Source: Chloroflexota bacterium (GTDB taxonomy: Bacteria; Chloroflexota; UBA11872; VXOZ01). Taken from it: a stretch of DNA of 64,000 nt. Made by a program: the position numbers and the translations under genes. The stretch is taken from contig OZ244922.1 in assembly GCA_965221905.1 (NCBI GenBank), positions 608,001 to 672,000 on the forward strand, given 5' to 3'. The notes beneath the pieces are model-generated. The model saw nothing but the letters and a program-made list of their open reading frames with translations. It was not told the DNA's origin and did no database searches. Shown piece by piece: positions 29,200-58,251 of the stretch (position 1 is its first letter; each line of letters opens with the position of its first letter).

Positions 29200-30320
<1,121 letters not shown>

Positions 30321-30617: not shown

Positions 30618-31142
30618 CTACAGCCCGCCCCCGCAGGTGTTGGCGGCCCACAGCCCTCGTCCTACGGCGCGCGCCTCTGCCTCCGCCGCTTGGAACATCT
30701 GCTGGTACCGGTACGGCACACTGTACGTGAACTCCCGCGCGTAGCCCTGGCGAACCATCCACTCGTTGAAGAGCACGTCGCCCACCCACACGAACGCCAG
30801 CAGCCGGTCGTAACGATCGCGCCGGCCTTGCGACGCGTCGAATTCCAAGCGCACCGCCTTTCCAGCGAGCAACTCCTTGGCCTTGGCGCTGGCTTCAGGG
30901 CCAAAGCACTGTACGGGCCTCCCCGGCGCATTCGTTTCCGGCGCGTCTATGCCGATCAAGCGCACAGACTCGACTACGCCACGCATGCGTACTTTGATAG
31001 TATCGCCGTCCACAACCGAGACAATGGGGGAGGTACCGTCTGGATTGCCACACGTCCGCTGCGCTACAACAGCAATGAGTAGCGCGATAGTGAGAAGGAC
31101 AAGAGTGCGCCCGCGCAAAATGCCCCTCACGCGCCTCCTCAT
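30618..31142 (-). CDS. Thermonuclease (staphylococcal nuclease family), N-terminally anchored
   Basis: VVDGDT, RLIGIDAPE, DRYDRLLA, GYA, RGLW; start uncertain (31142 or 31169). Confidence 0.93.
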   Translation of the reverse strand: MRRRVRGILRGRTLVLLTIALLIAVVAQRTCGNPDGTSPIVSVVDGDTIKVRMRGVVESVRLIGIDAPETNAPGRPVQCFGPEASAKAKELLAGKAVRLEFDASQGRRDRYDRLLAFVWVGDVLFNEWMVRQGYAREFTYSVPYRYQQMFQAAEAEARAVGRGLWAANTCGGGL

Positions 31143-31829
31143 ATAACGCCGCCTGCGTGCCTTCAGCAACTTTCAAGCCTCCCACCACAGATATTCAATT
31201 GCCAATAGTAGCAGCAATGTGCAGAAGTGGCATGAATGGGCACCGCAAGCCCCGGTTAGATTCACCATCTGTGGAAAGGGAGTTGCAAACGAGGGCACCG
31301 ACCCCGCGCAAGCCCCGCCACTGGTCGAGTGTACTCCGCATCCTGTGGAAACGCTGGTGTAGCCGCCCACTCGCCTTATGCCATGAGATAGGGCCTCGAG
31401 CTTTATACTTCAGTTGAGAATCCCTACTGGCAGTCTCTAGAGTCTTGCCATGCCAAGAAGCCCAGTACGCCGGCGAGACTTTACACCGCGATTTCCAAAG
31501 TGCTACCGTAAAGATTGAGCAATACTACAACAAATGAAGTAATGCGGCGGCGTCACAGGCGGGAGTCGGCGTGGCGCGCCGCAAGGGACGGGGCTCTTGG
31601 CTTTCCCAATGGATACCTTTGCACAACTTGGGTCGAATGTGCAGAGTCCCCTCTCCCTCAATGGAAAGGGCTAGAGCCTGCCCCGTACTTGATACGGGGG
31701 TGAGGATGGACTCTATCCATTACCCTTCGATCCTGCCCGCTTAGTTGAGATGTGCAAAGGTCGCCAAAGAGACTGTTTCCCACCAGTATCATACTTTCGG
31801 CAAGTACAAGAATTGAGAGGCTTTAGAAC

Positions 31830-32903
31830 ATGGCTGTAAACGGAACCCCCCAGACTGACGACTTGGTTAACGCGCTGCGCGTTGTGCAGGACCCCGATCT
31901 GCATAAAGACATCGTTACGCTGAACATGGTGCGTGAAATGACCTACGAGAAAGGCACGGCGGCCTTTCAGTTAGTATTGACTACCCCCGCGTGCCCGATG
32001 AAGGAGCACCTGGAAAACGAGTGTCGGAAGGCGCTGATGGCCGTGCCCGGCGTACAGGCCGTGGAGATCGATACGCGGTCGGAAGTGGCCAAGCGCATGT
32101 CCCCCGAATCGGCGGAATTCTTGACGGACGTGAAGAACGTGCTTTTCGTTGGGAGCGGTAAGGGTGGGGTCGGCAAGTCCACCACCGCCGTGAATCTGGC
32201 AATCGCGCTGGCGCAGACCGGCGCTACGGTGGGGTTGCTGGACGCCGACGTCTACGGCCCGAATATCCCCATGATGATGGGATCGGAGGCGCAATTGCGG
32301 GGCGCGGGCAGCAAGGTGATCCCCGCTGAGGCCTACGGCATTACGCTCATGTCCGCCGGATTCGTCATCAAGCCGGAACAGGCCATGATCTGGCGCGGGC
32401 CAATTGTTCATCGTTTGCTCACGCAGTTTCTCAGTGACGTGCACTGGGGCGAGCGCGACTACCTGGTGGTGGACCTGCCGCCCGGCACCGGCGATGCGCC
32501 TCTCAGCTTAGCGCAGTCCATCCCCGGCGCGGGCGCTGTGATTGTCTGCACCCCGCAGGACGTGGCCCTGGCCGACGCCCGCAAGGCCATCGGCATGTTC
32601 CAACAACTGCGCGTGCCGATTTTGGGCATCGTGGAGAATATGAGCTACTTCCTCTGCCCCCGCTGCGACGAACGCACGGAAATCTTCAGCCACGGCGGCG
32701 CGCGCCAAGCGGCTGAAGCGATGGGCGTGCCTTTCCTCGGCGAGGTGCCGCTAAACGTCGCCATCCGCGAAGGCGGCGACAACGGCAAGCCGATTACGGC
32801 TATCCAACCCGACTCACCCCTGGCCGCCATCTACCGCGACGTCGCCGGCGCAGTAGCCCAACAAATCAGCATCGTCGGCCAAGAAGCGGTAGTAATCAAC
32901 TAG
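31830..32903 (+). CDS. mrp: Mrp/NBP35 (ApbC) Fe-S cluster carrier ATPase
   Basis: N-terminal ACP domain, GKGGVGKST, DADVYGP, DLPPGTGD, ENMSYFLCPRC. Confidence 0.95.
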   Translation: MAVNGTPQTDDLVNALRVVQDPDLHKDIVTLNMVREMTYEKGTAAFQLVLTTPACPMKEHLENECRKALMAVPGVQAVEIDTRSEVAKRMSPESAEFLTDVKNVLFVGSGKGGVGKSTTAVNLAIALAQTGATVGLLDADVYGPNIPMMMGSEAQLRGAGSKVIPAEAYGITLMSAGFVIKPEQAMIWRGPIVHRLLTQFLSDVHWGERDYLVVDLPPGTGDAPLSLAQSIPGAGAVIVCTPQDVALADARKAIGMFQQLRVPILGIVENMSYFLCPRCDERTEIFSHGGARQAAEAMGVPFLGEVPLNVAIREGGDNGKPITAIQPDSPLAAIYRDVAGAVAQQISIVGQEAVVIN

Positions 32904-32915
32904 GGTCAGTTGACC

Positions 32916-35828
32916 TCAATCATCTAAATTCAATAGATCGAAGTAGCCCTTGCGCAGTAAGTTTTCACGGGCGCGGGTGGCATTACTCTTTGCGTATTCA
33001 TCGCCACTATCAAAGCCCGCTCGAATGATGCGCTTTGCTGTCTCAGTCCCAACATAGAAAGTAGAGTCATTGGGAGTGTCGGTTAGCTTTGCAAAACACT
33101 CAACCACCTTGGTCGTATGCCCTGGCAGCATCTCTTCCAAGGCTTTGGCAACTATCGAAACCGCCTGGAAAGTAGATCCTCTGGTAGCGTCCAAGACCCT
33201 TGAGAATGCGTTCAAGCGCCACTCTGCTTCCAGGCAATTGGCCTTTAGCAAAGCGGAGTAGTGAACTAATTCGTCAGAATCTCCTAATTCTAGCCGCCAT
33301 TCGAAGAATTCAACCAACCTACATTTCAAGTCTTCCGGCAAGTCCTCCTTTGTATTCTCAAGTTTGAGTCCAAGGTGGTCGACTAAGTTCGACCAGCGCT
33401 TGCGGTCGTGTTCCGTGCCCAAATAATAGCGCTCCAAGAGACTATCCTCACCTTTGAGCGGATACAAATCCCAAAGGTAATACATGAACAGATGCTGGCC
33501 GAGATAGTCTGAGAACTCTCTATCAGATTCGTCTCGTCCCTTGATTTTGGTCAACTGCTGGACTCCGAATTCGTAGTCCTTGCCAAGTTCTTCAAATGCC
33601 CGGACATTGGGGCCAAATCTACGTAAGTAACTGCCGAATGCCACCTGCCAGTCATCTGGCCTCTTCTGGGGAAAGATGTCTGACTTGTGATCCAGTGCCC
33701 AAGTTTCATCGAAACCAAGTAGACGTACGTAGTTTGCACCAAGGATTGCACGCTCCGGCAACGTCAGGGGTAAATCTCTCTCGATAGCGAAGCGCTTCAA
33801 TAGAACTGTCTTGACCTCGCCAAAGTCGGTGTCCGGGTCGATTCTCTGGAGCCAAAGACCGAATTCCATCAGGTACTCGAGTGCACGACTGCGAGTGTTG
33901 TTTATAGCTGTAGTGAGGTAATCATTGCTTCCAAAGAATTCTGGATTATCCTTGTCTAATCGCCAATCGAACTGTGTACACAGCATCTCAAGGAGTCCCG
34001 CCAAGCGCGCTTTAGCAATTATCGGCGCATTGACCTCCTTCTTTGTGCAGGTGTGTACGAGATGTCCTACTGCTTGGCGTGCTCTAGCCCAACTGGGATT
34101 GGACCTTGACTGTTCGCCACGACTAAAATCGTGCTCGTATTCTTGATCAGGATGCGAAAGCACCCATTCGCAGAATTCTAAACACTCGTCTAGTCTGACG
34201 AAGTCCTTTTCTTCTATGCGCTTCGCCATTCCTTCAATAATTGCCCGCACATAGATGGGACGTTCAATCCGATCCCGATTGTCCATCCAGAATCCGAATC
34301 GGTCAGAATTAGGCAGAATGCTCTCCATGAAAGCGGTTTGAAACGCCTCGGCCAGCCCTTCAATACTGATATCTACGAATGAACCGTCCTCGTCAACCTC
34401 GTAAGGTCGCTCTTCTTGCCAAGCATTTATGTAGTCAAGTATTCCCTGATCACTCTTAGCTGCGAGCTCCTGAGGTGAGATTGGACTTCCGCGCGAAATG
34501 GTTCTTGCCTCGGGTTCACTGACCGGGGAATAGTCTTCATCAGTAATCTGATTGTCTGCTTCAGCTTCTAGCTCTTGAAAGTAATTCAGGTATTTCCCAA
34601 AGAGAATGGAACCAAACGGTTTGAGTTGCATCCGATGAAAGTGGCGCTGACGCACCGCAAACAAGCTCTCAGTAAATCGTTCACCGTAGTGCTCCTTGAA
34701 AGCCTCCTTAGATGGTCCAAGGAGTATGTGGTCGAAGATTGATTTGCGCTCTTGTTCCGTCAGTAATTCTTCGCCAAAGTGCTCAATTGCGCTTTGTACC
34801 ATCAGGTGGAATTCATAGTGGTGTTCAGAACGCCGGTAGTCGTCGTGCGAGTTTATCATCTGTTGAATCCAAGGTTTGGTTTGCTCTGTCGGATAGTGCA
34901 CATAGAGATGTTGTCGTAGGCGCTTGAAGAGCTTCCACCGCTGCTTTCGAAGTCGTTCATCTAAGGCATCAATAGAATCCGGATCTTCTTCATATACTTG
35001 CTCGCAGGCAGAGGTCATCGTGTAGATGAGTAGCTCCTCGGGTTCGCCATAGCCCTCGTACTTGCCTCTGAGCCGTGGATACCAGACTTCAGAGTAGTCT
35101 TCGTCTCCGTCTCTTTCGATTAGATCTTGGTGCATGCCAAGATATGTCATCCTCGCCACGGCACTAATCAGGATGCAAGCTGTCTTGAACGGTTCCTTCT
35201 CGATTAGAGGCCGGATACCTCTAGTCAGTATTTCGCGGTAGTCCCAGCTCTCAAACCGCGGGACAGGTTCGAGATAGGTTAACAAGCCATCGGAATCTTC
35301 CTTGTATCGACTGCGCTTTTCGCTATCTTTGCGATCAGGCAAGAATCCGATTAATTTAGTTGCAAGCAAAAGTGCGGCGTCGGTTTCCTCTTCTGTCGTC
35401 CAGTAGGCTAACAGGCTCGAGTATCTGTGAGCCATGGTCTGAAATTCTAGCTCTGTATATTCGAGCATCTTGTCCTTGAGTCTTGCTGATTGTTTTCCAG
35501 GCAGCTCTAGTGCTATCTCCAACACAACGCTATAGATATTTGGGTTATCGACTCTTGGTATACCTGACAAGATCTCAACAACCTCTTCCGGACGGCACTT
35601 AGCGATATTCCTGAGATATTGAAGCTCTGGCCAAAAGGGGAATTGAACAGAACCGTCAGGGAGTGTAAGAGCGTTTGGGGGAGAAGTGAAGCAGCCGCGG
35701 TCAGAAAGTGGTTGAATCCACAAGGGATTGTTGAGACGCGAGAAGAAGAATTGCCGGTCAATTTCCCTCTTTGCCGACCCCAAGGCGCTGTCTACTGTTT
35801 CAGCTGTTGGTGTCTTCCAGGATTTCAT
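32916..35828 (-). CDS. Large hypothetical protein (970 aa), predicted alpha-helical solenoid; defence candidate
   Basis: Long AT-richer ORF; FFSRLNNPLW..PL..GCF..PP N-terminus; no catalytic motif recognised. Confidence 0.8.
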   Translation of the reverse strand: MKSWKTPTAETVDSALGSAKREIDRQFFFSRLNNPLWIQPLSDRGCFTSPPNALTLPDGSVQFPFWPELQYLRNIAKCRPEEVVEILSGIPRVDNPNIYSVVLEIALELPGKQSARLKDKMLEYTELEFQTMAHRYSSLLAYWTTEEETDAALLLATKLIGFLPDRKDSEKRSRYKEDSDGLLTYLEPVPRFESWDYREILTRGIRPLIEKEPFKTACILISAVARMTYLGMHQDLIERDGDEDYSEVWYPRLRGKYEGYGEPEELLIYTMTSACEQVYEEDPDSIDALDERLRKQRWKLFKRLRQHLYVHYPTEQTKPWIQQMINSHDDYRRSEHHYEFHLMVQSAIEHFGEELLTEQERKSIFDHILLGPSKEAFKEHYGERFTESLFAVRQRHFHRMQLKPFGSILFGKYLNYFQELEAEADNQITDEDYSPVSEPEARTISRGSPISPQELAAKSDQGILDYINAWQEERPYEVDEDGSFVDISIEGLAEAFQTAFMESILPNSDRFGFWMDNRDRIERPIYVRAIIEGMAKRIEEKDFVRLDECLEFCEWVLSHPDQEYEHDFSRGEQSRSNPSWARARQAVGHLVHTCTKKEVNAPIIAKARLAGLLEMLCTQFDWRLDKDNPEFFGSNDYLTTAINNTRSRALEYLMEFGLWLQRIDPDTDFGEVKTVLLKRFAIERDLPLTLPERAILGANYVRLLGFDETWALDHKSDIFPQKRPDDWQVAFGSYLRRFGPNVRAFEELGKDYEFGVQQLTKIKGRDESDREFSDYLGQHLFMYYLWDLYPLKGEDSLLERYYLGTEHDRKRWSNLVDHLGLKLENTKEDLPEDLKCRLVEFFEWRLELGDSDELVHYSALLKANCLEAEWRLNAFSRVLDATRGSTFQAVSIVAKALEEMLPGHTTKVVECFAKLTDTPNDSTFYVGTETAKRIIRAGFDSGDEYAKSNATRARENLLRKGYFDLLNLDD

Positions 35829-36465
35829 TCATCCCCTTTATTCGCTCATATGCGCTACTTGCTGCAGCGTATAGCATCGATTGAAGCGTTTTAAAGTGCT
35901 TTTCGGTCTTAAGTCGTTCTTCTGCGGAGAAGGGGCGTTTCCGGCAATGTGCGAACTTTACAAACCAACTTCTAGCCTCTTTCCACTCGTCCAATAGATT
36001 CCCAGGGATTCTGTCAATATCGTCATAGTCCAAGAATGTCCTAAAGAACAGGTAGTTGTTTAGGTCGTTCCTTTCGGCGCCGGTGTCATGTTCTACAAGC
36101 AGTTCCCTTACCTTTGCACAGGCTTCGAAGGTAACCAAGTGACCTCCCGCGTCATCGCTTTCTCCAAAGTCGCCTCTTGTGGAATTGATCCCGCGACCCC
36201 CCCATTCGTCCTTCCACTTTTTCTTTACGGTTTCAGTTAATTGCTTGTATTGCACTCGTCCCCCATCAGTGCCTGCAACAGTCCGAGCCAGATAGTTTGC
36301 GAAATCTCTTCCTACGTGAGCAATGATCGTAATGTAACCTGGGGTTTTGGCATTTAGGGAATGGATAGCCATTCCGTAGGCCTCCGCAAATACCGGCAGA
36401 TCTAACTCTTCGTTGATCCAGTTAAGAACGACCTGTTGTTTTCTTGTGAGATTGACGTTCGCCAA
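35800..36465 (-). CDS. Hypothetical protein (~221 aa), possible HEPN-like effector
   Basis: AGGA RBS before TTG 36465; AHVGRD and R-WFVKFAH motifs; overlaps the next gene by 29 nt. Confidence 0.7.
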   Translation of the reverse strand: MANVNLTRKQQVVLNWINEELDLPVFAEAYGMAIHSLNAKTPGYITIIAHVGRDFANYLARTVAGTDGGRVQYKQLTETVKKKWKDEWGGRGINSTRGDFGESDDAGGHLVTFEACAKVRELLVEHDTGAERNDLNNYLFFRTFLDYDDIDRIPGNLLDEWKEARSWFVKFAHCRKRPFSAEERLKTEKHFKTLQSMLYAAASSAYERIKGMNEILEDTNS

Positions 36466-36540
36466 ATTGCCGGTTCCTGTAGATATAGCCAAGTACGAGA
36501 TCAAACCAAGTCTTCTCTTCCAGGATATAATCGAACTCAA

Positions 36541-37347
36541 TTAACTCGCGCCGGATTTGCCGAGGAAGACTTGGGTGAGGATGTCGGTGGAGCGGATGGA
36601 TTCGGGGGTGCCGGTGAAGACGATGCGGCCTTTATCCAGCACGTAGGCGCGGTCTACTATGTCGAGGACGCCCTTGATGTTGTGCTCGACGATCACGATG
36701 GTCGTCTTGAGCCGTTCGCTGATTTCAGACACTCGCTCAAAGACCTCTTTGACGACGATAGGCGCGAGGCCCAGGGTCGGTTCATCCAGCAGGAGCACAT
36801 CGGGAGCCGCCATGAGGCCGCGGCCCAGGGCGAGCATCTGCTGCTGCCCGCCGGACATTTGGCTGGCCAGGTCGCGGCGCTTGCTCTGCAGGATGGGGAA
36901 GATCCGCATCACTTCGTCGAGACGGCGATTCTTTTCCGCCTTGTCTTTCAAGGAGAGGCAGCCCATCTCCAAGTTTTCCTCTATGGTGAGGTGCGTGAAG
37001 ACGCGCCTGCCCTGTGGGACGAAGGCAATGCCCTCTTTCACGATCTCATGGGTCTTTGCCGCCAGTCGCTTCCGCCGCCACAGGACCTCACCGGCCACGA
37101 CGGGCGCAAGACCCATGACGGCCTTGAGCACCGTAGACTTGCCGGCGCCGTTAGGGCCCATCACGGCCACGACCTCACCCTTGCTTACGCCCAACGAAAC
37201 CTCATCGAGAGCGACCACGGCCCCGTAGTGCACGGATATGCCGGAGAGCTCGAGGATCGGCGCGCCATTGGCGGCTGGGCCGTGCGCGTCGGCGGCAGCG
37301 GGCGGATTGGGGATCTGCGCTTCGGTTTTCTCTTCCGGTGTGTCCAT
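36541..37347 (-). CDS. livF: Branched-chain amino acid-type ABC transporter ATPase (LivF-like)
   Basis: GPNGAGKST, VPQGRRVF, MSGGQQQM, LLDEPTLGLAP. Confidence 0.9.
   Translation of the reverse strand: MDTPEEKTEAQIPNPPAAADAHGPAANGAPILELSGISVHYGAVVALDEVSLGVSKGEVVAVMGPNGAGKSTVLKAVMGLAPVVAGEVLWRRKRLAAKTHEIVKEGIAFVPQGRRVFTHLTIEENLEMGCLSLKDKAEKNRRLDEVMRIFPILQSKRRDLASQMSGGQQQMLALGRGLMAAPDVLLLDEPTLGLAPIVVKEVFERVSEISERLKTTIVIVEHNIKGVLDIVDRAYVLDKGRIVFTGTPESIRSTDILTQVFLGKSGAS

Positions 37348-58174: not shown

Positions 58175-58251
<77 letters not shown>

Follow-up and report, generated by a model that had tools for sequence, protein, structure and literature searches.

In the stretch of Chloroflexota bacterium DNA analyzed here (GenBank assembly GCA_965221905.1, contig OZ244922.1, positions 608,001–672,000; 64,000 nucleotides (nt), hereafter the window), two overlapping genes on the reverse strand between mrp and livF make up a genuine and probably functional defence pair, a two-gene system with a sensor of the Dsr1/Avs7 family. 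The large gene (32916–35828, reverse strand, ATG start) encodes a protein of 970 amino acids (aa) that is predicted to be a helical sensor of the Dsr1/Avs7 type, lacking SIR2 and NTPase domains. The small gene (35800–36465, reverse strand, TTG start) encodes a 221-aa predicted effector subunit, modelled as all-helical and with a probable HEPN-like fold. We assign a probability of about 0.6 to the full two-subunit model, a Dsr1/Avs7-family sensor working with a HEPN-like nuclease, and have more confidence in the general statement that the pair combines a sensor for defence with an effector encoded apart from it.

A preliminary description of this locus, made from the sequence alone, had proposed a sensor and effector pair in a defence context, which is borne out by the Dsr1 homology, the existence of fused modules and the cargo of a genomic hotspot. 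It had also called the system a candidate undescribed one, and that claim is not supported: an Avs7/Dsr1 sensor with swapped effectors, a HEPN-like RNase among them, was published in 2026 (PMC13581612, PMC12803255). The biological principle is already in print. New here are an intact split member of this capsid-sensor family, built from two polypeptides, an effector family defined together with its conserved residues, and a strictly conserved dual-coded junction. A separable effector and sensor would ease the study of how sensor binding activates the effector, and the conserved residues are direct targets for mutagenesis.

The Large Protein and the Dsr1/Avs7 Sensor Family

The PADLOC Dsr1 model PDLC04166 matches the large protein with an E-value of 8e-20, residues 443–818 corresponding to profile positions 729–1072 of 1227, and a colinear match (residues 266–383 to profile positions 606–719 of 1248) comes from PDLC04167, another model of Dsr1 (defence-associated sirtuin 1), which scores less well. 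All of the relatives tested (9/9) match PDLC04166, with E-values from 8.2e-13 to 2.6e-48, and their sensors span the Dsr1 profile from about position 305 to 1170–1200. In the split relative at locus L009, sensor residues 5–895 align with profile positions 307–1169, and at locus L005 residues 8–806 align with positions 305–1067; the split sensors thus start at the point that corresponds to the end of SIR2 in Dsr1. SIR2 was matched in neither protein of the pair (Pfam, PADLOC), and searches of the large protein against Pfam and NCBIfam returned no catalytic domain and no P-loop or NTPase domain. The earlier view of the large protein as helical and non-catalytic agrees with this, and its sequence marks it as a Dsr1-type helical sensor that has no catalytic domain and no SIR2.

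Among 7999 candidates examined, 1186 were homologs of the large protein at E ≤ 0.001. In an alignment of 42 large proteins the mean column identity was 60%, and the N-terminal motif M-x-S-W-K-x-P-T was invariant or nearly so, M1, S3, P7 and T8 being invariant. The sequence search of the PDB with the large protein gave nothing at E ≤ 1, and the phage collection searched with it gave no match. Four haloarchaeal plasmid proteins annotated as "AAA family ATPase" (H1–H4) cover 75–88% of the large protein at 21–22% identity and probably represent Avs7-like (STAND) proteins that have this sensor too.

Avs7 and Dsr1 have a common bilobed helical sensor for the phage major capsid protein (PMC13581612; preprint PMC12803255). 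The same sensor, without the STAND NTPase, is also joined to NADase, nuclease, kinase and "HEPN-like RNase" effectors (PMC13581612, PMC12803255), and split proteins are mentioned in the methods of PMC13581612. With Dsr1, the window pair has in common a homologous helical sensor, a defence-island setting and an effector placed N-terminal to or upstream of the sensor, but it lacks the SIR2 NADase, carries a separate 221-aa effector of another fold, and consists of two genes instead of one chain. The swapped-effector proteins of PMC13581612 likewise combine a sensor of this family with an effector other than SIR2, described as HEPN-like, and lack the STAND NTPase. Avs7 (antiviral STAND 7) has a homologous sensor that recognizes the major capsid protein, but it also contains a STAND NTPase and assembles with EF-Tu into tetramers in an ATP-dependent manner (PMC13581612), whereas no NTPase was found in the window pair. 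The link between the window pair and Avs7 is taken from that paper; the link tested here is the one to the Dsr1 hidden Markov model. DSR2 follows the same logic, an N-terminal effector and a sensor of helical repeats, which on binding a structural protein of the phage brings about abortive infection, but its effector is SIR2, it senses the tail tube protein, it is a single chain, and no sequence match between it and the large protein was seen in the PDB search.

The Small Protein as a Candidate HEPN-Like Effector

A profile search of 1.84 billion representatives (clustered at 50% identity) returned 574 relatives of the small protein at E ≤ 0.001, of which 296 lay at ≤ 1e-10. The members of this large effector family, which is without a model in Pfam, NCBIfam and PADLOC, are mostly standalone proteins of 200–250 aa. 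A relevant Pfam match was found in 0/40 relatives tested, and the plasmid collection searched with the small protein contained no match.

Conservation within the family is concentrated in a few residues. Across 102 aligned sequences with a mean column identity of only 19%, H173 and N220 are invariant, and W16, Y30, H50, R53, N57, Y73, W84, H126, F191 and L216 are conserved in at least 90%. The small protein of the window retains every conserved residue, including H50, R53, N57, H126, H173 and N220. The motifs that had first drawn attention to a HEPN-like fold, AHxxRD and R..WFVKFAH, are present as AHVGRD (residues 49–54) and RSWFVKFAH (residues 165–173) and together hold H50, R53 and H173, that is, conserved His and Arg residues of the family. 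Helix 2 carries the conserved Arg, within the pattern H50-x2-R53-x3-N57, and the invariant H173 lies in the loop before the last helix. Such a set of His, Arg and Asn would fit an RNase that works without metal, and another kind of nuclease is also possible.

The AlphaFold2 model built from the 102-sequence alignment is all-helical, with a predicted local distance difference test (pLDDT) score of 91.9 and a predicted template modelling (pTM) score of 0.84; an earlier model from 19 sequences had reached a pLDDT of 68. Most of the best structural matches of the predicted bundle are HEPN domains of the RNase type, and the matches are modest. Those titled HEPN are sacsin HEPN, two HEPN toxins, ST0689, AF_0298 and 4nqf. 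Roquin, AbiA, TT1696, Csm6, RnlA/LsoA and 1wwp, also among the matches, are proteins that we take to be HEPN. Further matches are assigned to HEPN in the literature, namely 1ylm, 1jog, the C-domain of aminoglycoside nucleotidyltransferase and Las1 in a survey of the superfamily (PMC3710099), and SO_3166 in a published abstract. The predicted helical bundle of the small protein finds its best structural matches among the HEPN RNases (HEPN-MNT toxins, Csm6, RnlA/LsoA, Las1 and the C-terminal domain of AbiA), and the protein has the putative role of defence effector and the invariant His just before the last helix. It differs from them in having no conserved Rx4-6H motif, in the position of its Arg on helix 2 (H-x2-R-x3-N), in one additional helix at the N-terminus and in some 45 inserted residues (65–112).

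Split and Fused Architectures

Among the 120 best homologs of the large protein, 98 start like the one in the window and 5 are truncated; in the other 17 the N-terminus is extended by 100 aa or more. The extension is the domain of the small protein itself in four cases (P0097, P0120, P0132 and, in part, P0080) and a related domain, here termed type-B, in the other 13. Type-B and the small family align over the whole domain (hhalign probability 93.8%, E = 1.8e-7, 176 columns). Other fused forms of the small type are L032, P0172, P0192 and P0300, and a search for longer proteins with the family alignment returned at least two fused forms. The preliminary description had considered a split ancestral fusion; the existence of fused homologs means that one module occurs in both split and fused forms.

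The upstream module was counted in the 21 distinct loci whose upstream region could be seen (L003/L007, L027/L028 and L034/L035 each counted once; L029, where the contig ends at the gene, left out). It is a separate gene in 15 loci, which comprise 11 of the small type, three of type-B and one of a more distant type, and is fused in six, with type-B in three, the small type in one and another N-terminal domain in two. A close relative whose mrp is 99% identical (L001) has a fused type-B gene at the same livF–mrp site.

A plasmid of Streptomyces sp. NBC_00212 encodes a fused protein of 1090 aa, the N-terminus of which is a compact form of the small domain (with SHLFRE and GYAH) that aligns with the small family over 58 columns (hhalign probability 77.6%, E = 1.9e-5). 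The published "HEPN-like RNase-containing protein" of Streptomyces sp. NBC_00271 (PMC13581612) is a single chain, whereas the system of the window is split. Because the NBC_00212 fusion carries the compact small domain, the published example may belong to the same effector family.

Type-B also connects the family to PF18165 (pP_pnuc_1, a predicted pPIWI-associating nuclease), which is matched weakly by 12/17 fused proteins at E < 0.01, mostly at profile positions 8–41, with one match exceeding the cut-off of the model. PF18165 clusters occur among the ESM Atlas look-alikes of the small protein (score 0.90), and the first two helices, with the pattern L..W/Y.GA...L...P....a..RE, are common to both. 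In hhalign comparisons with four true PF18165 proteins from Chloroflexota, the small family scored 41.6% over 60 columns and type-B 91.3% over 52. The PF18165 model itself did not match the small protein at E ≤ 1 and matched 0/40 of its relatives at E ≤ 0.01. A literature search on the pPIWI-associating nuclease PF18165/pP_pnuc gave no relevant paper, and the domain is not described in the sections covered of Burroughs et al. (2013; PMC3702460). Two true PF18165 genes, from two Chloroflexota genomes (L037:1420-2788 and L038:1381-2776), each have a conserved upstream gene of 268–279 aa and unknown function, and neither a Dsr1-like sensor nor an Argonaute adjoins them within the short loci fetched.

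The small and large subunits were also submitted to complex prediction. The small protein with residues 1–700 of the large protein scored 0.44 (0.43–0.45 in three runs), against 0.00 for the best of three controls, which was rated "weak support"; the partner pLDDT was ≥ 64, and ≥ 47% of contacts were common to the runs. Among solved complexes 58/80 attained this mark, as did 2/110 mismatched pairs, and passes at ≤ 0.60 include only 7 of the 80 solved complexes plus both passing mismatches. The prediction is counted as mild support, since the fusions had made binding likely beforehand. From the fusions and this one weak in silico pass we infer that the two subunits may form a physical complex.

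The 29-nt Dual-Coded Junction

The small gene ends with ...NEILEDTNS* and the large gene starts with MKSWKTPTAE in the +1 frame, the two having 29 nt in common (35800–35828, reverse strand; MKSWKTPTA in the large frame). A Shine-Dalgarno-like AAGGGG lies at 35833–35838 on the same strand, 4 nt before the ATG of the large gene and within the conserved (I/L)KG codons of the small gene. Overlap, frame and embedded AAGGGG are thus as the preliminary description had given them. The longest form of the small open reading frame (ORF) covers 35800–36540 (reverse strand, 246 aa). The TTG at 36465 gives the 221-aa protein; the 90%-identical homolog P0001 begins alike, and a Shine-Dalgarno-like AGGAA, a feature read from the sequence only, is placed 8 nt upstream (36474–36478, reverse strand). 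Both ORFs have many homologs.

Homologs conserve the overlap. It measures exactly 29 nt in 10/11 distinct split loci of the small type, which come from Chloroflexota, Latescibacterota, Nitrospirales and metagenomes. The exception (L008:864-1565, genome G197) has a small gene without the usual stop, which runs 12 codons longer and makes an overlap of 65 nt; this pair also adjoins mrp, and upstream of it lies a DNA methylase fragment, not livF. Other split subtypes have overlaps of 8 and of up to 20–32 nt. The stop codon falls exactly one residue past the conserved [AT]N in 79/107 standalone representatives, and AAAGGG or AAGGG is kept in most split loci. Over the 11 loci, column identity is 0.90 inside the overlap as compared with 0.75/0.76 in the 60 nt on either side. 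Two conserved motifs are read from the same DNA: ...LDEILEE[AT]N belongs to the small protein, M.SWK.PT to its larger partner. This double reading accounts for the high conservation. An assembly indel, which the preliminary description had named as a risk, is excluded, since the 29 nt recur in 10/11 split loci of several phyla; moreover, contigs of three studies (X1, possibly the source sample, X3 and X4) span the overlap without gaps and with no indels listed.

The simplest reading of the junction is translational coupling of the small and large genes. In fusions of the P0097 type both junction motifs stand in tandem, and L032 is without the SWKKPT segment; from these fused forms it follows that both motifs matter as protein. 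A metagenome scan with the fused P0120 for fusion DNA carrying both junction motifs found no relative, so a passage from split to fused by duplication or deletion at the junction is drawn from protein sequences only. The main text of PMC13581612 and the literature on related topics gave no description of a dual-coded junction, no dedicated literature search having been made. The junction sequence ATGAAATCCTGGAAGA (35813–35828) has a 14/16 copy at 36516–36531, just downstream of the livF stop, which by a rough estimate is about chance level.

A Variable Defence-Cargo Site Between mrp and livF

The pair fills a low-GC interval (32904–36540) between mrp and livF, in which the guanine plus cytosine (GC) content is 0.47–0.51 (33000–36500) as compared with 0.58–0.66 in the flanks, in line with the AT-richer insert noted before. 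The mrp gene (31830–32903, forward strand) is of the Mrp/ApbC type (ParA and FeS_assembly_P), and the livF-type ABC ATPase gene (36541–37347, reverse strand) is the last of the liv operon. The interval is variable among relatives in the genus. Five that are without the pair (L020–L024) have 2.8–5.3 kb of lower-GC DNA at this site, each with a different insert of other defence or toxin cargo: a HigB toxin with a TPR protein in G134 and G188, a DpnII/MboI-type restriction enzyme in G310, a UvrD-like helicase with DarT and an ADP-ribosylglycohydrolase in G214, and a Dcm methylase with Vsr, HATPase_c_3 and Methyltransf_35 in G143. The cargo of G310 also contains a partial second mrp 3' end (L021:2179-2550; residues 234–357, 85% identical), which may be a recombination scar at the mrp end.

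The pair was matched in 3/10 genus relatives and 9/401 genomes of the phylum. It adjoins a DNA methylase-HNH gene in L002 and L003 and other restriction-modification-like genes elsewhere. Patchy distribution together with variable cargo is typical of mobile defence genes at a hotspot, and mrp–livF is a clear defence-cargo hotspot in this Chloroflexota genus.

Proposed Model and Alternatives

In the proposed model, the 221-aa protein would replace the N-terminal SIR2 domain of Dsr1 as the effector. The ribosome-binding site and start of the large gene fall within the final 40 nt of its smaller neighbour, and coupled translation would keep the subunits in step. The small and large subunits would assemble into a complex, the sensor would bind a phage trigger, and the complex would then rearrange or oligomerize and switch the effector on. 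The activated effector would cut host or phage RNA, so that the infection aborts. RNase activity, phage trigger and abortive infection are all inferred.

Several observations weigh against this model. The small protein has no family match in Pfam, NCBIfam or PADLOC; Foldseek searches of the PDB with both of its models returned nothing at E ≤ 0.001, and the family profile gave only chance-level matches to PDB sequences (E ≥ 0.34), hence no sequence match to a solved structure. The Rx4-6H motif is not conserved: over the 102 sequences, the family as a whole has W167 and F168, and no conserved Arg, at 4–6 positions ahead of H173. Only the close subfamily retains R165; most close homologs have R165-x5-H171, and the window's protein has F171. 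In favour of the preliminary proposal of a HEPN-like small protein, the model resembles HEPN folds best. Because the HEPN family c2405 has a conserved H and no R (PMC3710099, Table 1, a 2013 survey), the missing motif alone does not exclude a HEPN fold. The link to PF18165 is confined to about 55–60 N-terminal residues, a helical hairpin, and membership in PF18165 is not established, since this hairpin is all that matches. Coverage by contigs from an RNA library is limited to a 95%-similar relative of the small gene and is not a sign of transcription. On the sensor side, the clear match of the window's protein to the Dsr1 model covers only its middle part, activation by the major capsid protein is shown for EcDsr1 and SeAvs7 only (PMC13581612), and the sensors of the family may have diverged in specificity.

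The strongest competitor keeps the Dsr1-family defence and makes the small protein something other than an RNase, namely a DNase, an enzyme acting on nucleotides or small molecules, or a non-enzymatic adaptor by which another component is recruited or regulated. The lack of a conserved canonical HEPN motif and the modest fold matches speak for it, Pfam calls the distantly related PF18165 only a "predicted nuclease", and a legend of PMC13581612 has "effector-associated domains" among the N-terminal modules of the sensor family. We consider it rather unlikely, since His, Arg and Asn that stay invariant or nearly so over 102 sequences at 19% identity point to catalysis rather than a scaffold, and RNase-type HEPN domains predominate among the best fold matches. 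The pair could also be, instead of a phage sensor, an addiction module of the toxin-antitoxin kind, or have a housekeeping function tied to the liv operon. Either would suit its place immediately downstream of livF and in the same orientation, with no sigma-70-like promoter seen in the 75-nt spacer between livF and the small gene, at a hotspot where relatives carry a HigB toxin. Yet the sensor is homologous to Dsr1, the pair is patchy in the genus while the cargo of the site varies and is of low GC, and in other phyla the pair adjoins methylases or restriction genes instead of liv, which together make this reading improbable.

Least probable of all is programmed +1 frameshifting at the overlap, by which part of the product would be a fused effector-sensor chain. 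The frameshift product had been suggested in the preliminary description, and it is true that the large gene lies in the +1 frame, that the overlap is unusually conserved and that fused relatives exist. However, the large gene has its own ATG with a well-spaced AAGGGG, no slippery run was seen by eye at the overlap, and no RNA structure was found there (z = -0.35, consensus energy -3.37 kcal/mol). The ILEE[AT]N and M.SWK.PT motifs explain the conservation, and the overlaps of other split subtypes have other lengths. The suggestion is thus left without support, and a Dsr1/Avs7-family sensor with a separately encoded HEPN-like nuclease is preferred.

A bolder extension of the preferred model is put forward with low confidence. 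The small protein could found an uncharacterized class of nucleases, with a HEPN-like bundle, a catalytic set of H-x2-R-x3-N on helix 2, H126 and the invariant His ahead of the last helix in place of Rx4-6H, a distant kinship with pP_pnuc_1 associated with prokaryotic Argonaute (pAgo), and the form of a detachable subunit, and the junction could be a functional device. If so, the junction would fix the subunit stoichiometry by coupling and would let the module switch between split and fused states through small duplications or deletions.

Other Features of the Window

A scan for promoters and terminators gave counts not above those in shuffled sequences. At 1.7–3.7 kb from the insert lie an IS110-family transposase gene (29200–30135, reverse strand) and a staphylococcal-nuclease-like gene (30618–31169, reverse strand). 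The lone Rfam match in the window is a tRNA gene (58175–58248, forward strand).

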